From assembly GCA_028716965.1 (NCBI GenBank), contig JAQUOV010000004.1:76298-140297 (forward strand): DNA of 64,000 nt, written 5' to 3'. The notes below the pieces were generated by a model. It saw nothing but the letters and a program-made list of their open reading frames with translations, ran no database searches and had not been told where the DNA came from. Below are positions 962 to 55,723 of the stretch, piece after piece. Origin of the DNA: Candidatus Omnitrophota bacterium (GTDB lineage Bacteria > Omnitrophota > Gorgyraeia > Gygaellales > Profunditerraquicolaceae). A program made the position numbers and the translations under genes. The number at the start of each line of letters is the position of its first letter. Position 1 is the stretch's first letter.

Positions 962-2263
<1,302 letters not shown>

Positions 2264-2278
2264 ACTATAGAAGGTGTT

Positions 2279-2312
2279 CGCCCTGCCGCGCAAGCTCAGC
2301 AGGGTTTCGTTG
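2279..2312 (+). terminator. candidate intrinsic terminator after purA (ccctgc-N12-gcaggg followed by a T-rich tail)
   Basis: GC stem at 2281-2286/2299-2304 followed by tttcgttgtatgttta. Confidence 0.35.
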
Positions 2313-2346
2313 TATGTTTATGGGTGTTCAATTCTTTTAAAACTCT

Positions 2347-2375
2347 TGACTATAATAAGTGCTTATGTTATATTT
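2347..2375 (+). promoter_or_regulatory. sigma70-like promoter (TTGACT-17nt-TATATT) for the OmpA-family gene
   Basis: ttgactataataagtgcttatgttatatt read directly; RBS aaaaggagag lies upstream of the ATG at 2405. Confidence 0.45.
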
Positions 2376-2404
2376 AATTTCCAATAAACAAAAGGAGAGT
2401 TAAG

Positions 2405-3100
2405 ATGAAAAATAATTTTCTCAAAGCCTTATTGGTTTTATTTATAACTTTAGGTTTGGCGGGATGCAGTTTTGTTTTTCAAAAGGGCAGGCGTTCCGAC
2501 GCCGAGAAGATCCAGGAGCTAAACGCCCAGCTGGATGAACTTTTGAGCTCAAAGAGCATGCTTGAACAGAAGTTAGGACAAGAGATAAATGACAGGCAGA
2601 TAAAGCTCCAAATGATGGAGAAGGGCCTGGTGATTACCGTCGTAGGCGACCTTTTGTTTGATTCCGGAAAAGCCAGTATCAGGCCGGAGGCGTATCCTTT
2701 ACTGAACAAGGTAGCCTCGGTATTGAAAGATAACATGGCACAGTTTAACATAGGCATAGAAGGGCATACGGATAATGTTCCGATCAAGGTATCAGGCTGG
2801 AAATCCAACTGGGAGCTTTCTACCGCGCGCGCCTTAAGTGTTCTGCATTATTTAGTCAAAGAACAGGGGATCTCTCCCGAACGTTTATCCGCAATCGGTT
2901 ATGGAGAATACCGGCCGGTAGATTCTAACGAAACAGCAGCAGGCCGTAAGCAGAATCGCAGGGTGGAGATTGTTATCCTGCCTAATGTTACCAAGGTTAA
3001 AAGCGGCTCTAATGGCCCGGTAGCGGTGAAAGATTCTGAAGAAAGCTCCGATACCACCGGTTCATCGGAACTTAAAGAACCCATAGATAATCTCAAATAA
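2405..3100 (+). CDS. OmpA/MotB-family lipoprotein (peptidoglycan-binding OmpA_C domain)
   Basis: Signal peptide plus lipobox LAGC; coiled-coil segment; C-terminal TDNVP...NRRVEIVIL OmpA_C signature. Confidence 0.8.
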   Translation: MKNNFLKALLVLFITLGLAGCSFVFQKGRRSDAEKIQELNAQLDELLSSKSMLEQKLGQEINDRQIKLQMMEKGLVITVVGDLLFDSGKASIRPEAYPLLNKVASVLKDNMAQFNIGIEGHTDNVPIKVSGWKSNWELSTARALSVLHYLVKEQGISPERLSAIGYGEYRPVDSNETAAGRKQNRRVEIVILPNVTKVKSGSNGPVAVKDSEESSDTTGSSELKEPIDNLK

Positions 3101-3157
3101 CTGGGTATTTACGAAGTCAGCGCAGCGTTTAGCTGACAGTAAATGTAGGTCAAATAA

Positions 3158-3499
3158 ATGGAAGATGTTTTAAAGGACCGCATACTAATTATCTTAGCGA
3201 TATTATCGTGTGTATTCCTTTTCGGTACGCTTAGCTCATGCAACAACGCGATGCGCCAAAAAGCCGGCCGGGATAAAGAAATGGCTGCCCGCCTTCAGAT
3301 GGAAGAGAAGATGAACAGGTTCTCCCAGGAGAGGTCGGTTTTAGAAGAAAAGGTTAAGGCAAAGGAAAAAGAGGCCGAAGAGGCAAAAGCAGCCCTTGAG
3401 GAAACTAAAAGAATCCTGGCTCAAGAACAAATGGCTAATCAGGGCCTTAAAGATGAGTTGCAAAAGGCAGCTAAGCTTAAAGAACCCCCTAAAAGATAA
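3158..3499 (+). CDS. hypothetical membrane-anchored coiled-coil protein (E/K-rich)
   Basis: N-terminal hydrophobic helix with cysteine, then a heptad-like E/K-rich region; no recognisable domain. Confidence 0.45.
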   Translation: MEDVLKDRILIILAILSCVFLFGTLSSCNNAMRQKAGRDKEMAARLQMEEKMNRFSQERSVLEEKVKAKEKEAEEAKAALEETKRILAQEQMANQGLKDELQKAAKLKEPPKR

Positions 3500-3583
3500 C
3501 TTTAAAAGGGTATCGCTAAGCCGGGAAGAATCCTAAAGATGGAATAAGAGGAGCTTGAATGTGAGCGTAAGCGATGGTTCTGT

Positions 3584-3610
3584 AAAAAGGGGAGATAATC
3601 CCCCTTTTTT
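3584..3610. terminator. symmetric hairpin aaaaagggg-loop-ccccttttt (possible bidirectional terminator)
   Basis: A 9-bp stem with an A-run 5' and a T-run 3'. It lies inside the N-terminal extension the ORF track gives the next gene, arguing that gene really starts at 3630. Confidence 0.35.
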
Positions 3611-3629
3611 ATTAGAAGGAGGTGGGTTG

Positions 3630-4601
3630 ATGAAAATATTAAAGAAAGTGAAAGAGAAGCTAAAGAAAATTATCCGCGTTAAGCCTGTTTCTTTGAAACC
3701 CCAAAAAAACAGGTTGCCTTCTGCCGGAAAACCTGATTCTGTATCCAGGGATATCCCGGGTTTCCAGGAGACCATTGCCGTCAATACAAAGTTTTCTCAT
3801 CCGGAAAGTACCCGCTTTAGAAGCGCCATGCCGGAAGAGCTGCCTTCTTCTTATGACCAGGACAGGATTATTTTGCAGGTCAGGGACCCGCGCTGGCTGC
3901 ATACTTACTGGGAATTAAGGGGCCAGACTATTGAGGGCCTGAAGAATAAGCTGGGAGACGAATTCTACCGCGCGAAAAAGATTCTAAGGGTTTACGACGT
4001 CACAAATATCGTATTCAACGGTTCCAATGCCAATAGTTTTTTTGATATCCAGTACAATGATTTTGCCAATAGCTGGTATATTGATACGGCCGGTCCCGGG
4101 CGCTCCTGGTGTGTGGATCTGGGGTTGATGCTTGCTGACGGCAGGTTCATTACTATCTTACGCTCCAATGTCGTCCAGACTCCTTTGGATGGGCCGTCCT
4201 GGATTACCGACGAAGAATGGATGATCCCCGAAGATGTTTTTGCCAGGCTTTATGGTATGGGTTTTGGTTTAGGCAGAAGCTCTCCCGTAGGGCGCGCCTG
4301 GCAGGAACGCACAAAGCAGGGGTTGTTCAGTTCAGGTATATCATCCAGCCCCGTAAGAAAAGAGGTCAAGGAAAGAAGTTTTTGGATGAAGGTAGATTGT
4401 GAATTGATTGTGTATGGCGCCACTGAACCCAGCGCAAAAGTTACGGTGCAGGGGATGCCGATTAACTTGAGGCCCGACGGAACTTTTACCCTGCGTTATT
4501 ATCTGCCGGACGGCAAACAGGTAATCCCGGTTAAGGCGACCTCCGCGGACCAGTTGGAAGAGCGGGTTATTACCCCAATCGTGAACCGGGAAACCAGATA
4601 A
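3630..4601 (+). CDS. DUF4912-family protein (GH57-associated)
   Basis: RDPRWLHTYWEL motif typical of DUF4912. The gene sits immediately upstream of, and nearly abutting, a GH57 gene. Start moved to the ATG at 3630, which has a GGAGGTG RBS. Confidence 0.65.
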   Translation: MKILKKVKEKLKKIIRVKPVSLKPQKNRLPSAGKPDSVSRDIPGFQETIAVNTKFSHPESTRFRSAMPEELPSSYDQDRIILQVRDPRWLHTYWELRGQTIEGLKNKLGDEFYRAKKILRVYDVTNIVFNGSNANSFFDIQYNDFANSWYIDTAGPGRSWCVDLGLMLADGRFITILRSNVVQTPLDGPSWITDEEWMIPEDVFARLYGMGFGLGRSSPVGRAWQERTKQGLFSSGISSSPVRKEVKERSFWMKVDCELIVYGATEPSAKVTVQGMPINLRPDGTFTLRYYLPDGKQVIPVKATSADQLEERVITPIVNRETR

Positions 4602-6187: not shown

Positions 6188-6907
6188 ATGCAGGATAATC
6201 TCAAGATCCCCAAACATATCGCTTTTATTATGGATGGTAACGGCCGCTGGGCAAAAGAAAAGGGCTTAAGCCGTACTGCCGGGCACCGGGAGGGGATAAA
6301 GCGCGTAAGAGAGATCATTCGCGGAGCCAGCCAATTAGGTATTCAGGCAGTTACATTCTTTGCTTTTTCAACGGAGAATTGGTCCCGGCCGAGAAACGAG
6401 GTTAACGTCCTGATGCGTTATCTGGGCAATTTCCTGGATAAAGAGGTCATAGAATTGCATAAGAATAATATGCGTTTTATGGTTATCGGCAGGGGCGACC
6501 CTATTCCCTTATACCTTCAGGCTAAGATTAAGAAAGCCCAGGAGAAGACCAGCGCCAACACCGGGTTAAAAGTTGTTTTAGCTATAAATTACGGCGGCAG
6601 GCAGGAGATCGTGGACGCCGCGAAGCGGTTTGCCAGGGATGTATTGGCCGCAAACTCCGAGCTTGAGAGCCTGGAGGCGGAGCAATTCAGCGGTTATTTT
6701 TATGCCGCGGATATCCCTGACCCTGACCTTCTGATCCGCACCAGCGAAGAGATGCGCATCAGCAACTTTATGCTCTGGCAACTTTCATACTCCGAACTTT
6801 ATTTTTCCAAGAAATACTGGCCGGATTTCGGTATTGAAGAGTTAAGGGAAGCCATCAGAGAGTATCAAAAGAGGGAGCGCAGGTTTGGAGGTTTAAATGT
6901 TGCTTAA
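6188..6907 (+). CDS. uppS: undecaprenyl-diphosphate synthase (isoprenyl transferase)
   Basis: HIAFIMDGNGRWA and FSTENW motifs. Confidence 0.93.
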   Translation: MQDNLKIPKHIAFIMDGNGRWAKEKGLSRTAGHREGIKRVREIIRGASQLGIQAVTFFAFSTENWSRPRNEVNVLMRYLGNFLDKEVIELHKNNMRFMVIGRGDPIPLYLQAKIKKAQEKTSANTGLKVVLAINYGGRQEIVDAAKRFARDVLAANSELESLEAEQFSGYFYAADIPDPDLLIRTSEEMRISNFMLWQLSYSELYFSKKYWPDFGIEELREAIREYQKRERRFGGLNVA

Positions 6908-7757: not shown

Positions 7758-8909
7758 GTGCGAGTGAAGAGAATCGCGATCTTAGGTTCCAGCGGCTCTA
7801 TCGGCCAGAGTACGCTTTCAGTCATAAGAAGCTTGCCGCGGCAATTCAAGGTTGAAGCTTTAAGCGTCAATTCGGATATCGTTAAGCTAAGACAGCAGAT
7901 AGAAGAATTTAAACCGCGCCTTGTATGCGTGAGAGATGGACAGGCAGCCTGTAAATTGCGCTCTGATTTAGGCTCATCTGTAAAGGTGCTTTGCGCAGAA
8001 GAAGGTTTGCATGAAATGGTTAAAGACAGGCAGATTGATCTGGTGATGTTTGCCATCTCCGGTTCTGCCGCGCTTAACCCATTGATTAGCGCAATCAGGA
8101 GCGGAAAAGATATTGCTTTAGCTAATAAAGAAGCTTTGGTGATGGCCGGTCCTTTGGTTATGCGCCTGGCGAAGAAATATAAGGCCAGGGTCCTGCCGGT
8201 TGACAGCGAGCAGTCAGCCATTTGGCAGAGCCTGGGAGGTTTTCGGCACTCCGATGTCAGGAAGGTATACCTTACTGCTTCCGGCGGCCCCTTCAGGAAC
8301 CTGCCGGCCAGTAAATTTAAAAAGGTCAGCCTGGAGCATGTGTTGCGGCACCCCCGCTGGAAGATGGGTAGAAAGATAACGGTTGATTCGGCGACCTTGA
8401 TGAATAAGGGGCTGGAGGTACTTGAAACAATGTTCTTATTCAGTTTGCGGCCGGAAAAAATTAAGGTCTTGATCCACCCCGAGGCATTGATCCACTCCAT
8501 GGTTGAGTTTAACGACGGCGTCATTATGGCCCAGCTTTCAGCCGCGGATATGCGTATACCCATACAATATGCCCTATCCTATCCGCAGCGCCTGGTTAAC
8601 AGCCTGGAGGGGATTGATTTTTACCGTCTCAGCGAATTGCATTTTGAAAAACCGGACAGCGATAAGTTCCCCTGCTTAAAACTTGCCTACAGGGCGGCGG
8701 AAGATTTAGGTACTATGCCTGCGGTTTTAAACGCGGCTAATGAAGTCAGTGTACATAGCTTTTTAAACAAACGGATTGATTTTTTGTCTATACCGGAAAT
8801 AGTAGAAAAAGTGATGCGGCGCCACAGAAGGATAGCTGATCCTGATCTTACACAGATAATGGCTGCCGATGCCTGGGCCAGGGAAGAGGCTGTTTGCCTG
8901 GCCGGATAA
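7758..8909 (+). CDS. dxr: 1-deoxy-D-xylulose 5-phosphate reductoisomerase
   Basis: ILGSSGSIG NADPH motif, LANKE and full-length match; GTG start. Confidence 0.93.
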   Translation: MRVKRIAILGSSGSIGQSTLSVIRSLPRQFKVEALSVNSDIVKLRQQIEEFKPRLVCVRDGQAACKLRSDLGSSVKVLCAEEGLHEMVKDRQIDLVMFAISGSAALNPLISAIRSGKDIALANKEALVMAGPLVMRLAKKYKARVLPVDSEQSAIWQSLGGFRHSDVRKVYLTASGGPFRNLPASKFKKVSLEHVLRHPRWKMGRKITVDSATLMNKGLEVLETMFLFSLRPEKIKVLIHPEALIHSMVEFNDGVIMAQLSAADMRIPIQYALSYPQRLVNSLEGIDFYRLSELHFEKPDSDKFPCLKLAYRAAEDLGTMPAVLNAANEVSVHSFLNKRIDFLSIPEIVEKVMRRHRRIADPDLTQIMAADAWAREEAVCLAG

Positions 8910-10006: not shown

Positions 10007-11095
10007 ATGGGCATTATAAGAAGAAAATCCAAGGTCGTAAGAATCGGCAACCTTTTGATCGGTGGGTCTAACCCGGTAGCCATCCAGTCAATGACCAAGA
10101 CCAGGACAAGCGACGTAGAAAATACCGTTATGCAGATTAATCGGTTAAAAGATGCAGGTTGCCAGATTGTGCGCCTGGCAATCAATGATTTTGAAGATGC
10201 CGCCTCTTTAAAGCGGATTAAGGCTAAGGTAAAGATCCCGCTGGTGGCGGATATCCATTTTGATTGGCGCCTTGCTATTGCCGCTATTGAGAATGGAGCG
10301 GATAAGATAAGGCTTAATCCCGGCAATATTGATAAGAAGCAGCAGATCGCGCAGGTTGTCTCGGCATTAAAAGCAGCCAGGATCCCCCTGCGTATAGGGC
10401 TTAATTCCGGCTCGGTAAAAGATACAGTCCGGAAGAAAACTTCAATGAGCGATAAATTAGTCTCTGCCTGCATGGGTTATGTAAAGGTGATTGAGGGTTT
10501 TAAATTCAAGGATATAGTAATTTCGCTTAAGGCCAACAATGTACTGGATACTCTTGCCGCTTATCGCAAGGTTTCCAGGCTTTGCGCTTACCCTTTGCAT
10601 CTTGGCCTGACCGCTACAGGTTCTGTTTACAGCGGGATTATTAAATCCAGCGTAACTTTAGGGGCTTTACTTTTGGAGGGTATAGGTGATACAATAAGGG
10701 TATCTTTGACTGAAGAGCCGGTAGAAGAAGTCAGGGCGGCTAAATGCATATTAGAGTCCCTGGGGCTGCGTAGATTCGGGCCGCAGATCATCAGTTGCCC
10801 TACTTGCGGGCGTTGCAAGGTTAATTTGGTCGGTATAGTAAAGGAATTGGAAGGTAAGTTGTCGTCTATTAGCCGCAGGCCATTGTCCCGGCCGATGAAG
10901 CTGGCTATAATGGGGTGCGTGGTTAACGGCCCGGGAGAGGCTAAAGAAGCGGATATCGGGATTGCTTTTGGCAAAAAAGAGGGGGTGTTATTCAGGTACG
11001 GTAAAGTGGTCAGGAAGGTAACGCCGGGTGATTGTGTGCCCGTTATATTGAAAGAAATGGAATCCAGGGGTAAGTCGTGGCCCATCAAGCGCTAA
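10007..11095 (+). CDS. ispG: 4-hydroxy-3-methylbut-2-enyl diphosphate synthase
   Basis: TIM-barrel N-domain and C-terminal CPxCGR...GCxVNGPGE Fe-S cysteines. Confidence 0.93.
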   Translation: MGIIRRKSKVVRIGNLLIGGSNPVAIQSMTKTRTSDVENTVMQINRLKDAGCQIVRLAINDFEDAASLKRIKAKVKIPLVADIHFDWRLAIAAIENGADKIRLNPGNIDKKQQIAQVVSALKAARIPLRIGLNSGSVKDTVRKKTSMSDKLVSACMGYVKVIEGFKFKDIVISLKANNVLDTLAAYRKVSRLCAYPLHLGLTATGSVYSGIIKSSVTLGALLLEGIGDTIRVSLTEEPVEEVRAAKCILESLGLRRFGPQIISCPTCGRCKVNLVGIVKELEGKLSSISRRPLSRPMKLAIMGCVVNGPGEAKEADIGIAFGKKEGVLFRYGKVVRKVTPGDCVPVILKEMESRGKSWPIKR

Positions 11096-19290: not shown

Positions 19291-19830
19291 ATGAAGATCC
19301 TACTGCATATCTGCTGCGCGCCATGCCTGATTTATCCTTTAAAAAGGCTGAATGAACAAGGTTTTAAGGTAAAAGGATTTTTCTATAATCCCAATATTCA
19401 TCCTGTCAGCGAATTCAATAGGCGCAAAGAGGCTGTTGTTGTTTTGAGTAAAGAATTGCAGCTTGAGACAGAGTATCCTGAATATTTGCCATCTGAATTC
19501 TTCCGGGCAATTAACGTCGATGCAGCCGCTGCGCAACGCTGCCTGGATTGTTGGAGGCTGCGCCTGCTTGAAACAGCTCTTTATGCCGGGAAGAACGGTT
19601 TTGAGGCATTTAGCTCAACTTTGTTAGTCAGCCCGTATCAGGACCAGGAATCGCTTAAGTGTTTAGGCAATCAGGCTGCCAAAGAAGCAGGGGTAGATTT
19701 CTATTACGAAGATTTCCGCCCCGGGTTCAGGTCAGCCCATGAAGAGGCCAGGAGCAGGGGGATCTATTGCCAGAAATATTGCGGTTGCAGTTATTCTGAA
19801 ATTGAAAGGCGCGCCAAGATAAAAAAATGA
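19291..19830 (+). CDS. queH: epoxyqueuosine reductase QueH (DUF208)
   Basis: N-terminal LLHICCAPC cysteine motif and C-terminal CGCS motif of QueH. Confidence 0.85.
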   Translation: MKILLHICCAPCLIYPLKRLNEQGFKVKGFFYNPNIHPVSEFNRRKEAVVVLSKELQLETEYPEYLPSEFFRAINVDAAAAQRCLDCWRLRLLETALYAGKNGFEAFSSTLLVSPYQDQESLKCLGNQAAKEAGVDFYYEDFRPGFRSAHEEARSRGIYCQKYCGCSYSEIERRAKIKK

Positions 19831-21051: not shown

Positions 21052-22044
21052 ATGCTTAAACTTAGTGAATTCGATTATCCGCTTCCTAAAGAGCTGATTG
21101 CCCAGCATCCCCTGGAGAATAGAGAAGAGGCCAGGCTCCTGATTGTGGACAGGCAGAAGGGCAGGATCACTCATGCCGTATTCAGGGATGTGGGGAGTTT
21201 TTTTAAAGAAAAAGATTTATTGGTCCTTAATGACACCAAGGTCTTGCATTGCCGTTTAATGGGGAATAAAACAACCGGAGGCAAGGTTGAAATTTTATTG
21301 ACCCGGCGTATAAACGGCTCAACATTTTCCTGCCTGGTCCAGCCCAGCCGCACAAAGGCCGGTGAGAAGATCATTTTTGCCGGCGGCAAGATTACCGGTA
21401 TTTTGAGTGCACGGGGACAGATAAGTTTTAAGCAGCCCGATGCGGATGTAATTTACGATTACGGCGTCGTACCTTTGCCTCCTTACATAAAACGTGAACC
21501 CATTGATTCGGACAAGGTTTATTACCAGACGGTTTATGCTAAGAATGAAGGCGCGCTTGCGTCACCTACTGCCGGCTTGCATTTTACGCCAAAGCTGCTT
21601 GAGGATATCTGCGCGCAAGGCGTCAACCTGGCTTATATAACTTTACATGTCGGCTTAGGCACGTTCCGCCCGGTAAGATGCGAGAATATCCTTGAGCATA
21701 AAATGGAGCCGGAATATTTCCAGGTGCCTGATGAGGCGGTTGCCAAAATCAGGCAGGCCGTCGATGATAAAGGCCGCATAATTGCCGTAGGCACTACTGC
21801 TTTAAGGACACTTGAGACTTTTGCCACAGGCCGCAGGGAAGGGAATACGGATTTGTTTATTTATCCGGGTTATAAGTTTAAATTAGTTGATTGCCTGTTG
21901 ACCAATTTTCATCTGCCGATGACTACGCTTTTTATGCTGGTCTGCGCCTTTGGCGGGGAGAAGCTGATGAAGAAGGCGTATCAGGAAGCGGTGGAAAAGA
22001 AATACAGGTTTTACAGCTACGGCGACGCAATGTTGATTCTTTGA
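21052..22044 (+). CDS. queA: S-adenosylmethionine:tRNA ribosyltransferase-isomerase
   Basis: N-terminal FDYxLPxELIAQxP and full-length match. Confidence 0.93.
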   Translation: MLKLSEFDYPLPKELIAQHPLENREEARLLIVDRQKGRITHAVFRDVGSFFKEKDLLVLNDTKVLHCRLMGNKTTGGKVEILLTRRINGSTFSCLVQPSRTKAGEKIIFAGGKITGILSARGQISFKQPDADVIYDYGVVPLPPYIKREPIDSDKVYYQTVYAKNEGALASPTAGLHFTPKLLEDICAQGVNLAYITLHVGLGTFRPVRCENILEHKMEPEYFQVPDEAVAKIRQAVDDKGRIIAVGTTALRTLETFATGRREGNTDLFIYPGYKFKLVDCLLTNFHLPMTTLFMLVCAFGGEKLMKKAYQEAVEKKYRFYSYGDAMLIL

Positions 22045-22061
22045 TATTTTGCTCTCGGGAT

Positions 22062-22199
22062 ATTGTTCGCGTGCGAAAATTTTCGCCGAGTGCTTCGGTT
22101 TACGTCTCGCTACGGCTACAGTATACTTACGCTGGTAAGATTCTGCCTCCGCTCGACGTAATTCCTCGCACTCTTTTGCCGAAAATTTTCTAATGCACG
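22062..22199. repeat. MITE-like element: imperfect ~25-30-nt terminal inverted repeats (gcgtgcgaaaattttcgccgagtgc / gcactcttttgccgaaaattttctaatgcacgc) around a ~75-nt core
   Basis: Arms read directly. Each arm contains the self-palindrome gcgaaaattttcgc / gccgaaaattttc. The core contains taagattctgcctc, related to the 5' motif of the rplS/rpmE leader family. Confidence 0.4.
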
Positions 22200-22237
22200 C
22201 TCCACAATATCCCTCGACAAAATATCTATAGATAGAA

Positions 22238-23608
22238 TTGACATTCGCGGCAAACTCGCAATTGGCGTTTAGTGATATAGAATCACGAGTTAAGAATATC
22301 ATGGATAAGCTGAAAAATATCTTTAAGAAAAATTCTATTCATTCCGGAAAAGACATAATAAAGAAATGCTATAATTTCTCTTTGTCCGAAATATATGAAT
22401 TTATACTATCTTTATATTTAGAAATTGAAAAAAATGCATATCGCAGTAGTGAAATATTAACAGAGTCTGTTTATTTGAGCACATCCGCTGTTGGATTATC
22501 TCAATTCTGTTCTTCTCCTGAATGCCGTATCAATCGGATTCAAAAAACACTAAAGTCATCTTTGCTTTTGTCCGATAGAGTGTTTATAGATAATCCTTTA
22601 GAGCGCATTGCAAATATAGAACCCAGTAGAGATACGTCGGTATTAAGATCTAATTATTGCTCAGATTTACTTTACATATATTACATTGTTAGTCTTTTGG
22701 ACATGGGTGTACTGATTAATTTACCTAGATGGGTAACTGTATGTAAGCATTGTAAAAGGCAATTAACAAAATCGATAAACGAAACCGAGAAACTGATTTT
22801 GCTAAAGAAAAAGTACTTCTATGAGCTAATGAAAAATGAATTTACAGGCAGTCTAAAATTCGATAGAGACCATTGGGAGGTATTTTATGAAGGGAACCTC
22901 AATCTAATTCCAGATGCTCATCCCATGGTAATAAATATGTTAAAAATACCAAATAAATTAAAAAAATTAAGAAATAGCCGTGTAACATTTAATGACTTTA
23001 TGAAATTTGGTCTGCCTGACAATATTATATACGATCTAATCAGTAATGCGATTTTATATTTGCCATATAAAAGCCGACATGGATTAAACGCTTTAGTTAC
23101 AAATGAACTAGAAGCGAGTATTTTTAATCAATTAATAATGGGTAAAGATAACAAAAAACACGAAATACCGTTTATTAATTTTGATGATATCAATTTAGGT
23201 AGTTTAATAAAGGCAAGGCATAAGCAACCCGAGGAGTTTCAGAATTTTCGGAAGGAAATTAATAAAGTTATTAAAGAAATTAGATTAGGTAATGGAAGCC
23301 AGACAAATGATAAGAATTCACAATTGAATGTTTTCATTAGACAGGAGATTAGCAAAAATTTAAATCGTCTTAATGCCAAGATAAATCATTATACAGGTGA
23401 TCAATTGAAGAAGGCGTTGCAAAGGGGGTTGATGGTTGGGTCTATACTTGGAATTGGTGCTTATACGGGTGTATTGCCAAATTCCGCTCAAATTTTAGTA
23501 TCAGCTAGTCTTGGAATATTACCGCATACTGCAGTAGGATTACTTAACAGAAAAGATGCAATAAAGAATGATAACTGGTATTTTTATTGGCAACTAGCAA
23601 AGAAATAA
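22238..23608 (+). CDS. AT-rich orphan protein with C-terminal glycine-zipper transmembrane hairpin (candidate horizontally acquired toxin/defence-like effector)
   Basis: Long ORF with strongly AT-biased codons unlike all neighbours. TTG start at 22238, or an ATG at 22301 preceded by a TGnTATAGA-like extended -10. No recognisable catalytic domain. The C-terminal 60 aa contain two hydrophobic segments with GxxxG spacing. Confidence 0.55.
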   Translation: MTFAANSQLAFSDIESRVKNIMDKLKNIFKKNSIHSGKDIIKKCYNFSLSEIYEFILSLYLEIEKNAYRSSEILTESVYLSTSAVGLSQFCSSPECRINRIQKTLKSSLLLSDRVFIDNPLERIANIEPSRDTSVLRSNYCSDLLYIYYIVSLLDMGVLINLPRWVTVCKHCKRQLTKSINETEKLILLKKKYFYELMKNEFTGSLKFDRDHWEVFYEGNLNLIPDAHPMVINMLKIPNKLKKLRNSRVTFNDFMKFGLPDNIIYDLISNAILYLPYKSRHGLNALVTNELEASIFNQLIMGKDNKKHEIPFINFDDINLGSLIKARHKQPEEFQNFRKEINKVIKEIRLGNGSQTNDKNSQLNVFIRQEISKNLNRLNAKINHYTGDQLKKALQRGLMVGSILGIGAYTGVLPNSAQILVSASLGILPHTAVGLLNRKDAIKNDNWYFYWQLAKK

Positions 23609-23656
23609 GGGTGACGATTTTTGATTTGTATAGCGGATGGCTTGGATTGTTTCCAA

Positions 23657-23800
23657 GCAGGGCGTTTGCAGGCCGAGCGGGCAAGGTTACCCGGCTATAT
23701 ACGAAGTAGGTAGAGCGAGGCCGAAACCCGAGCGAAGTTTGCCTCGCCGGGGCAAACGAGCGTCCCTGCGGGAAACAAGACAAGACAGACGCGTTAATAT
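23657..23800 (+). repeat. GC-rich structured intergenic element, copy A (candidate cis-regulatory RNA/ncRNA or miniature repeat)
   Basis: About 130 nt aligning with the reverse complement of 55493-55618. Shared blocks are cagggcRtttRcaggccgRgcRggcaWgg, cccgagcgaag, a 7-bp hairpin with compensatory changes (gtttgcc/ggcaaac versus gcctgcc/ggcaggc), and a 3' tail gaaacaagacaa(gaca)gacgcgtta. It ends 10 nt before the tgt ATG. Confidence 0.5.
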
Positions 23801-23809
23801 TGGGAAAGT

Positions 23810-24922
23810 ATGTTTACTTTAATTCATAAAGACAAAAATAGTAAAGCTAGGTTGGGAAAGCTGGTAACTGCGCATGGGGAGATTGATACTCCCGCATTTA
23901 TGCCCGTAGGCACGCATGCTACGATTAAAGGCCTCATGCTTAAGGATGTGGAGGAGGCGGGGGCGCAGATAATTTTGTCAAATGCTTATCATGTGTTTCT
24001 GCGTCCGGGCATAGAGACGGTTAAGAAGGCCGGCGGCTTGCACAAATTTATGGGCTGGGATAAGCCGATACTAACGGATAGCGGAGGGTACCAGATCTTT
24101 AGCCTTGCGCTTTTCCGCAAAATGCATGACCGGGGCGTAGAATTTCAGTCGCATATAGACGGCCTGAAGCATTTCCTTACCCCCGAAGACGTAATTAAGA
24201 TCCAGGAGGATTTAGGTTCGGATATCATCATGCCGCTTGATGAATGCGTGCATTATCCATGTACGCGCGACCAGTCAAAAATAGCAATGGAGAGGACGCT
24301 TGCCTGGGCAAAAAGGTCAAAAGAGGCCTATCATAAAGAAAAACAGGCATTGTTTGGAATTATTCAGGGGGCTACTTATGAGGACCTGCGCAAAGATTGC
24401 GCCGGGCGCATGGTTGATATGGATTTTGACGGTTATTCCATCGGCGGAGTTTCTGTTGGCGAGTCCAGCAATTTAATATATAATATCATTGAGCTGGTCA
24501 GCGGCTTGCTCCCGGAAGATAAACCGCGTTATGCCATGGGTATCGGCTATCCGTTTGATATAGTAGAAGCCGTGGACCGCGGCGTGGATATGTTTGATTG
24601 CGTAATCCCCACGCGTTACGGCAGGAACGGTACGGCTTTTACAAGCAGCGGCAAGGTGATCATCCGTAACTCTTCCTATGCCGAAGATTTCCGGCAGCTG
24701 GATGCCAAATGCGGCTGTTATGTCTGTAAGAATTTTTCCCGGGCGTACCTTAGGCATTTATTCAATGCTAAGGAGATGCTGGGGTTGATTTTGCTTAGTT
24801 TTCATAATGTCTATTTCTTCCTGGATTTAATGCGCCAGATCCGGCAGGCGATAAAAGAGGATAAGTTCAGCCAGTTTAAACAGATCTTTTTAAGCGGCTA
24901 CAATAACCAGATATGCGCATAG
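23810..24922 (+). CDS. tgt: queuine tRNA-ribosyltransferase
   Basis: TPAFMPVGT, zinc site CxCxxC...H near the C-terminus; full length. Confidence 0.95.
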   Translation: MFTLIHKDKNSKARLGKLVTAHGEIDTPAFMPVGTHATIKGLMLKDVEEAGAQIILSNAYHVFLRPGIETVKKAGGLHKFMGWDKPILTDSGGYQIFSLALFRKMHDRGVEFQSHIDGLKHFLTPEDVIKIQEDLGSDIIMPLDECVHYPCTRDQSKIAMERTLAWAKRSKEAYHKEKQALFGIIQGATYEDLRKDCAGRMVDMDFDGYSIGGVSVGESSNLIYNIIELVSGLLPEDKPRYAMGIGYPFDIVEAVDRGVDMFDCVIPTRYGRNGTAFTSSGKVIIRNSSYAEDFRQLDAKCGCYVCKNFSRAYLRHLFNAKEMLGLILLSFHNVYFFLDLMRQIRQAIKEDKFSQFKQIFLSGYNNQICA

Positions 24923-29119: not shown

Positions 29120-29190
29120 GCATGCTCCAAAGGCAGGACCCCGGGGCGTAATAGGCGAGAAACAAAACAAGACAGACGCGTTAGGATCCA
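29120..29190 (+). repeat. partial copy of the GC-rich structured element (3' half), ending 10 nt before the metF-like start
   Basis: ggggcgtaataggcgagaaacaaaacaagacagacgcgtta aligns with the 3' tail of copy A; 17 nt are identical (acaagacagacgcgtta). Confidence 0.35.
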
Positions 29191-55475: not shown

Positions 55476-55492
55476 GATAGAATATAAATGCG

Positions 55493-55618
55493 CCTGGTTT
55501 GTCTTGTTTCTTGCAGAGGCGCTTGCCTGCCCCAGCGTGGCAGGCTTCGCTCGGGTCGGCGGCGTCGCTCTCCGCCTTCGGCGGAACCATGCCTGCCCGG
55601 CCTGTAAATGCCCTGTTT
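55493..55618 (-). repeat. GC-rich structured intergenic element, copy B (same orientation as rpmB, upstream of its promoter)
   Basis: Reverse complement aligns block-by-block with 23657-23800, including the covarying hairpin and the aaacaagacaa tail. Confidence 0.5.
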
Positions 55619-55723
55619 AAATGTAGTTGCCAATCCATCCGCGTAATTTGCGTACGTTTAAGCACGGTTTAGACAGTAGCATTTAGATGTAGGCAATGAT
55701 GGATAAAAACAATTAGTAGATGT

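Follow-up and report, generated by a model that had tools for sequence, protein, structure and literature searches.

An AT-rich gene between queA and tgt of an Omnitrophota bacterium belongs to a large, undescribed family found in mobile contexts

What accounts for a single long, AT-rich gene lying between queA and tgt in a bacterial genome? The question arises in a 64,000-nucleotide stretch of a Candidatus Omnitrophota bacterium (GenBank assembly GCA_028716965.1, contig JAQUOV010000004.1, positions 76,298–140,297 of the forward strand), referred to here as the window; coordinates are those of the window unless another locus is named. Both flanking genes are readily identified: queA (S-adenosylmethionine:tRNA ribosyltransferase-isomerase; 21052–22044, plus strand) matches PF02547 over its full length (E = 2.9e-125) and tgt (queuine tRNA-ribosyltransferase; 23810–24922, plus strand) matches PF01702 (E = 3.2e-161). 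The 1.77 kb between them contains one long open reading frame (ORF), here called X, and the Pfam matches together with the ORF list bear out the split pair that a first-pass annotation, made from the sequence alone, had described. There is good support for the view that X was acquired horizontally, as an accessory gene on its own, next to a dispersed repeat. What its product does can be proposed tentatively: X may be a mobile, membrane-associated conflict or defence protein.

Start, composition and retention of X

X is the plus-strand coding sequence (CDS) 22301–23608 and encodes 435 residues. Its product is identical to the 435-residue protein PHT50_03145 of an NCBI metagenome-assembled genome (MAG) of Candidatus Omnitrophica, all homologues begin at the methionine of ATG 22301, and nucleotide homology to a second context of the gene (a homologue locus with a reverse transcriptase, described below) starts at 22289. 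X therefore begins at ATG 22301 and not at TTG 22238, the start that had given a 456-residue protein in the first-pass annotation.

The GC content of X is 0.311 and its GC content at third codon positions (GC3) is 0.275, compared with 0.464 ± 0.019 and 0.524 ± 0.033 for the 50 other ORFs of the window (z about −8 for both). Windowed GC is 0.29–0.32 over 22.2–23.4 kb and 0.45–0.50 on either side, and X is the sole strongly AT-rich island in the 64 kb. The sharp deviation in AT content and codon usage claimed for the gene is thus confirmed, and the difference in GC3 means that codon choice is foreign and not amino-acid content alone. A GC content below that of the surroundings recurs in the family members at all 12 other loci measured, by 2–24 points.

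Within the clade of X and its close relatives (the window clade) dN/dS is 0.14–0.19 (about 0.16), which indicates purifying selection; X is a real gene under such selection. One related locus, L007, keeps the queA–X–tgt arrangement at a nucleotide identity of about 80% that extends over the genes and the two structured spacers, and its X has a GC content of 0.31. The insertion is therefore older than the split between the window and L007 lineages and has been retained since. The gene is thus found at the same site in one relative, with its composition still foreign and not native-like. The earlier proposal of a horizontally acquired single-gene module next to repeats is upheld by this composition, by a copy with 78% nucleotide identity in an unrelated reverse transcriptase context and by relatives that stand alone elsewhere. 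Homology confined to the CDS between the window and locus L002 was considered as evidence for cassette borders and set aside, because a dS of about 1.0 makes neutral flanks unalignable anyway.

A large undescribed protein family

A word-indexed search with X finds only four close relatives (71–100% identity) and one protein at 24%. Exhaustive HMMER searching with a profile of those relatives matches 1119, 659 and 198 representative clusters (at 50% identity) at E ≤ 1e-3, 1e-10 and 1e-30 respectively, nearly all of them about 455 residues long and matched end-to-end, so that X is not the orphan it was first taken for. A second search, seeded with a central member of the family, returns 118 proteins, all annotated as ‘hypothetical’ and none with a Pfam domain. 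Judged by these searches, X is a member of a large, unnamed and undescribed family. The hosts named for these relatives include Terriglobia, Blastocatellia, Pyrinomonadaceae, Chloroflexia, Ktedonobacterales, Phycisphaerae, Planctomycetaceae, Omnitrophota, Syntrophaceae and Ozemobacteraceae.

The window protein matches no model in Pfam, NCBIfam, PADLOC or PHROGs, and 105 relatives give no more than scattered weak matches in Pfam and PADLOC. The first-pass annotation had recognised no catalytic motif in the protein. One Pfam family, DUF6236, is matched by 4 of the 105 members (best E = 5e-4), every other by two at most; the matches are weak and the window protein has none, and the literature searched contained nothing on DUF6236. 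Two family members have weak Colicin/Pyocin DNase matches.

A close homologue beside a UG19 reverse transcriptase

The homologue P0003 (73% amino acid and 78% nucleotide identity to X) occurs in four contigs, L001–L004. In the two long ones (L001 and L002) it is found in an interval bounded by GH77 and a PP-loop ATPase/RmuC block, and a gene for a 711-residue reverse transcriptase (RT) follows 35 nucleotides (nt) downstream on the same strand. The RT matches the PADLOC model RT_UG19 end-to-end (E = 2e-146). In the L001 copy (2253–4388) the YVDD motif is intact and an RNx5H motif, RRNRLPQAH, is present at the C-terminus; from its sequence this RT appears to be the fused ‘UG19-large’ form with a HEPN-like domain of its own. 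Both genes of the L001-type locus are AT-rich (GC 0.316 for P0003 and 0.333 for the RT, 0.42–0.47 for the host), and the pair is bracketed by inverted repeats of about 213 nt that are 94% complementary. In L002 these repeats and the GC-rich repeat that follows X in the window are members of one family, and the right arm shares the orientation of the window copy.

UG19, a class 1 UG/Abi RT, is predicted to be defensive (Mestre et al. 2022; PMC9226505) and is linked to a HEPN-like domain that occurs either as a fusion or as the product of a neighbouring gene, ‘cluster 1465’ (PMC9226505). The P0003 locus resembles such systems in that the X homologue adjoins an intact UG19 RT, with which it shares its AT-richness and the flanking inverted repeats. 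The differences are that the window has no RT, that the wider X family is not RT-linked, and that the published partner is HEPN-like and the window clade of X lacks the Rx4-6H motif of HEPN RNases. That X might itself be the HEPN-like ‘cluster 1465’ protein was rejected as unlikely, as the RT has its own RNx5H, the window clade is without the motif and a comparison of X with the RT by hhalign is negative (probability 0.1%).

Elsewhere, no RT is found at the L007 site, L009 has no RT start within 184 nt and an adjacent RT is seen in 0 of 17 main-family loci. Scans of metagenome and viral contigs for the RT return only the same contig or nothing, and the RT matches in plasmid and phage collections are group II intron RTs.

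Other genomic contexts of the family

Ten main-family genome loci lack an RT, and X often lies there between genes of the opposite strand. All-against-all BLAST of the neighbours at these 10 loci reveals no conserved neighbour. Nor do they share an adjacent antitoxin-like gene; the ParDE and Phd/PIN pairs found nearby are complete by themselves. A genome scan finds one X-family locus per genome.

Some relatives keep company with conflict genes: type I restriction–modification (RM), TIR and ParDE in L023, Phd/PIN in L025, and Schlafen-AlbA_2, UvrA-like and ParDE genes in L028. Others lie directly after a phage-type integrase (L018) or at the integrase end of an IMG/VR prophage, together with CII and CI-like genes (L032). 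Among the neighbours at the ten main-family loci are RNase J, a class II aminoacyl-tRNA synthetase, peptidase M16 and PGA_cap. In L013 (1802–7831 of a Ktedonobacterales MAG) the X relative lies between the genes for a NuoF-like fusion protein and a NuoG/molybdopterin-type subunit, another housekeeping gene pair split by the family. In L017 (6732–10408) it is located between an extra 5S rRNA gene (8474–8591) and a partial 5S-like repeat (6732–6825), with a complete rrn operon adjacent that has its own 5S at 10292–10408; the arrangement resembles that of an island whose insertion duplicated the 5S end. The relative in L020 (7001–8676 of a Planctomycetaceae MAG) is broken over three frames and is probably a pseudogene, or else reflects assembly errors.

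In L019 (3750–14700 of the Candidatus Ozemobacteraceae chromosome OZ223236.1) the X relative occupies a cassette in an integron-type array that has seven attC-like sites in direct orientation. Over five cassettes in a row, R'' matches the reverse complement of the preceding R' exactly, and the bottom strands of the attC sites fold as bulged hairpins. Besides the X relative, the cassettes carry a GNAT acetyltransferase, unknown proteins and a 5.5-kb block containing an extracytoplasmic function (ECF) sigma factor and MacB/HlyD efflux genes; there is no integrase in the 15 kb examined. It is known that some integron cassettes of unknown function code for phage defence (bioRxiv 10.1101/2024.07.02.601719). 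The L019 relative resembles such cassettes as a single, promoterless-looking ORF unit, bounded by attC and foreign in composition, whereas in the window the repeats are not attC, no direct array is present and two phage-type queries found no integrase. Members of the family move by at least three routes: in integron cassettes, with integrases or prophages as cargo, and in a repeat-flanked cassette. An IS-like transposase was also considered and rejected: terminal inverted repeats around X relatives are missing at 16 other loci, and neither an RNase-H-like fold nor that of any other nuclease is found for X.

Architecture of the X protein

Conservation was read from alignments of 78–105 family members. 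The N-terminal part contains a cysteine region (22508–22753, plus strand) with C70, C75, C148 and C151, an invariant R76 and a conserved D92, all in columns that are invariant or at least 90% conserved. The four cysteines, judged by their conservation, are a probable Zn(Cys4) site in the α/β domain. D92 lies within the motif SDRV(F/Y)I (SDRVFI in the window protein); D122, H205 and P290–F291 are also conserved, as is a KLRxRExExFxxFR block with R306, E309, F313 and R317.

The structure predicted by AlphaFold for the window protein has a mean predicted local distance difference test score (pLDDT) of 74, that of the central member P0007 a pLDDT of 84.8 and a predicted template modelling score of 0.82. 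Both models consist of an α/β body, helical segments and one very long helix, and in both the C-terminal 50–60 residues are poorly modelled. No Protein Data Bank (PDB) entry matches the family models in Foldseek at E ≤ 1e-3, and a profile search of PDB sequences with the family is equally negative. No housekeeping fold has been assigned to the protein.

Three features follow each other at the C-terminus. The hydrophobic, Gly-rich segment 1 (G376–L392, GLMVGSILGIGAYTGVL; 23426–23476, plus strand) is the tip of the long helix 338–388 and carries two packing motifs, G380xxxG384 and G386xxxG390; G386 is invariant, and G390 as well as G405 are at least 90% conserved. Segment 2 (I398–L415; 23492–23545, plus strand) is hydrophobic to amphipathic and not convincing as a transmembrane (TM) helix. 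The protein ends in an aromatic helix, IKNDNWYFYWQLAKK (23561–23605, plus strand; family consensus YFLWKV), in which Y427, F428 and L429 are at least 90% conserved and W430 is invariant; the motif YF(L/Y)W is conserved across the family.

The first-pass annotation had seen in segments 1 and 2 a two-TM glycine-zipper hairpin. Kyte–Doolittle averages over 19-residue windows reach 1.28–1.51 for the two segments. On a summed insertion-energy scale, segment 1 scores about 2.3 kcal/mol in the window protein and 1.4 on average in the family, with 68 of 105 members at or below 2, which is borderline for a TM helix. Segment 2 scores 4.2 kcal/mol in the window protein and about 7.7 on average, with none of the 105 members at or below 2; its hydrophobicity is greater in the window clade than in the rest of the family. 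Among the C-terminal segments, then, only segment 1 appears membrane-like throughout the family, and that at a borderline level. Since segment 1 is borderline and segment 2 fails family-wide, a membrane-interacting tip is plausible, whereas a two-span hairpin is not established. Of the original description, the GxxxG motifs, the conserved glycines and the existence of a hydrophobic C-terminal segment survive; a second TM span is not supported as a feature of the family.

Proposed role and alternatives

We lean, with somewhat less than even confidence, towards X as a mobile, membrane-associated conflict or defence protein, its role being read from context and composition. X arrived between queA and tgt as a single-gene accessory module, landing beside a dispersed GC-rich structured repeat, and has since been inherited vertically under purifying selection. 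Its family spreads between distant bacteria as a solo gene, by way of integron cassettes, prophage or integrase cargo and islands of RM, TIR and toxin–antitoxin genes, one form of spread being the two-gene cassette with a UG19 RT between 213-nt inverted repeats. The protein is envisaged as a cytoplasmic α/β-plus-helical body with the probable Cys4 zinc site, followed by a stalk helix of about 50 residues, a Gly-rich hydrophobic tip, a short return helix and the conserved aromatic C-terminal helix. Working alone, it could serve in conflicts through abortive infection or phage exclusion: trigger sensing would fall to the cytoplasmic body, and the hydrophobic C-terminal module would either have its effect at the membrane or tether the protein to it. 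The conflict reading is suggested by the mixed contexts (integron, prophage, RM/TIR/toxin–antitoxin and one RT), the foreign composition and the occasional decay, as seen in defence and other conflict genes; the membrane is suggested as the site of action or anchoring by the combination of a soluble body, a long stalk and a hydrophobic Gly-rich tip.

Known membrane-acting abortive-infection effectors (retron 2TM, CBASS TM and SLATT proteins) offer a comparison. X resembles them in joining a soluble domain to a short hydrophobic, Gly-rich C-terminal module, and its family is found in mobile and defence contexts, once beside an RT. It differs in that it matches neither a SLATT nor a PADLOC effector profile, has one borderline conserved helix and has a soluble body without a known fold. 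A bolder version of the proposal, which we regard as possible and somewhat doubtful, is that X founds an undescribed, widespread single-gene anti-phage family of the abortive-infection type, with a new fold, a Cys4-zinc sensor body, a long stalk and a membrane-inserting tip, spread by integrons and prophages, one lineage of which was recruited to a UG19 RT. Such a family would extend over Acidobacteriota, Chloroflexota, Planctomycetota, Omnitrophota, Desulfobacterota-like and other lineages, with more than 1100 clusters.

Several observations weigh against a defensive, membrane-acting X. The first-pass annotation had proposed a search for homologues in defence islands, and they occur there in part: a UG19 RT, type I RM/TIR, toxin–antitoxin genes, an integron and a prophage end are among the contexts, but ordinary housekeeping neighbourhoods account for over half (11 of the 19 examined). 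In the window itself Pfam identifies queA, tgt and a GHL10 protein near X, a tblastn search with the L001 RT finds nothing better than E = 0.75, and two phage-type tyrosine integrases used as proxy queries in tblastn (IntI not being among them) find nothing. No X relatives turned up in the plasmid and phage collections, and no homology of X to characterised defence or toxin proteins was found. Membrane insertion is borderline by hydrophobicity in just the C-terminal region that is poorly modelled. The window clade is only about 20% identical to the bulk of the family and carries a 10-residue deletion where the main family has an RNxIAxKH stretch; given this distance and the missing helix with its RNx5H-like motif, the function of X may differ from that of the main family. 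Finally, low GC content and a patchy distribution are also compatible with mobile cargo that has nothing to do with defence.

That last alternative, in which X would be an often exchanged, membrane-associated protein serving regulation, stress responses or niche adaptation and not acting against phages or other mobile elements, is to be taken seriously, though we think it rather unlikely. It accommodates the predominance of housekeeping neighbourhoods, the lack of PADLOC matches among 105 members beyond scattered single ones and the long retention of X under purifying selection in two lineages, and integron arrays do carry many non-defence cassettes, the neighbours in L019 being a GNAT acetyltransferase and an ECF-sigma/efflux block. 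It fits less well with the repeated co-location with RM, TIR and toxin–antitoxin genes, integrases and a UG19 RT, with a composition that stays foreign in every host and with occasional pseudogenisation. The UG19 association raises the improbable alternative that X in the window is an orphaned partner of an RT system, either a remnant left after loss of the RT or reliant on an RT elsewhere in the genome. In L001–L004 the two genes are 35 nt apart on one strand, equally AT-rich and enclosed by joint inverted repeats, and in the window the GC-rich repeat stands directly 3' of X, at the position expected for the RT. Yet no RT is present in the 64 kb or at the L007 site, none starts within 184 nt in L009 and none adjoins the 17 main-family loci; a dN/dS of about 0.16 argues against decay, X and the RT share no similarity, and the C-terminal RNx5H of the L001 RT suggests a fused ‘UG19-large’ protein that already contains an effector-like domain (PMC9226505).

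Less probable again is a selfish gene, a free-standing homing-endonuclease-like or addiction gene that furthers its own spread or retention. In its favour are solo insertions between housekeeping genes (queA/tgt; NuoF-like/NuoG-like in L013) and beside the duplicated 5S of L017, the conserved Cys4 plus R, D and H residues and the weak Colicin/Pyocin DNase matches of two members. A hydrophobic C-terminus is, however, unexpected in a nuclease; terminal inverted repeats are missing from 16 other loci, the genome scan gives one locus per genome, no antitoxin-like neighbour is conserved, and purifying selection has been strong and vertical retention long. A native housekeeping gene tied to queuosine or tRNA modification, odd in composition through its amino-acid content only, is scarcely credible. 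Its position is kept in L007 and a scan of 21900–23900 finds no terminator-like site, but GC3 (0.275 against 0.524) marks the codon choice as foreign, and P0003 and all distant relatives stand in unrelated contexts without queuosine genes, so that genomic context already contradicts this reading.

If the conflict or defence proposal is right for the family as a whole, the family would be a large, unannotated and structurally new single-gene system, mainly of uncultured environmental phyla, that current defence catalogues miss, and the uncharacterised UG19 reverse transcriptases would gain a new partner. The case of X also shows one family settling inside conserved housekeeping operons and persisting there under selection.

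Structured elements flanking X

Both sides of X are occupied by structured elements. The upstream one is an imperfect palindrome of about 180 nt (22045–22225; no strand assigned) that begins at the base after the queA stop codon and folds into a long hairpin (minimum free energy −82.6 kcal/mol, z = −5.9); the whole spacer 22045–22300 has a native-like GC content of 0.43. The palindrome is kept in L007 with two compensatory pairs (GAGTGC/GCACTC to GTGCGC/GCGCAC), and its conservation exceeds that of synonymous sites in the adjacent gene. The first-pass annotation had called it similar to a miniature inverted-repeat transposable element. The palindrome is real, but further copies are found neither in the 64 kb nor in the loci compared, save at the syntenic L007 and the same-locus fragments L005, L006 and L008, so that this likeness is unproven.

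The downstream element is a GC-rich structured repeat unit (23626–23805, plus strand; fold z = −3.9) directly 3' of X and 4 nt before the tgt start. It has a second full copy at 55477–55647 on the minus strand (73% over 148 nt by blastn; nhmmer E = 1.5e-40), 32 kb away and in the opposite orientation, and a partial copy of its 3' end at 29154–29188 on the plus strand, upstream of ORF 29197 (93% over 29 nt; nhmmer E = 0.075); the structured GC-rich repeat reported at the first pass is thereby corroborated. An internal hairpin of the repeat covaries across genomes (GTTTGCC/GGCAAAC, GCCTGCC/GGCAGGC, GCATTTCC/GGAAATGC). Neither this repeat nor the palindrome matches an Rfam family at gathering or E ≤ 1 thresholds. 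The GC-rich repeats, of about 165–215 nt, form an undescribed family of Omnitrophota-type genomes that includes the L002 copies at 4296–4508 and 8179–8391, and the structured repeats that flank X in Omnitrophota are themselves undescribed.

The 3' end of the window repeat resembles the attC end of L019 (GACAGACG(C)GTTA). No RYYYAAC box occurs at the 5' end of 23626–23805, and GTT occurs in only one of the two full copies, as well as in the partial one at 29154. The repeats were therefore considered as attC sites and rejected as such, there being no R'' box and no direct array. A motif (A)ACAAGACAGACGCGTTA is found at 23783–23800 and 29165–29183, shortly before the starts of tgt and ORF 29197, and the L019 attC sites end in ACGACAGACGTTA, which is similar to it.

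The second full repeat copy lies just upstream of a promoter-like TTGACA/TATACT pair and a minus-strand gene of 75 residues. Beside it, at 56.1–57.0 kb, there is a mild GC dip that contains small genes only. Upstream of queA, the 179-residue ORF 19291–19830 has a CCAPC motif, and we take its product to resemble QueH (DUF208); the neighbourhood would then presumably be a queuosine cluster of queH, GHL10, queA, X and tgt.

L005, L006 and L008 are three independent short-read assemblies of X with near-identical breakpoints. Their contig ends map to about 22175–22187 and 23662–23683 of the window, inside both flanking structured elements, and the shared breaks suggest that both flanks are repeated or variable in the sampled populations.

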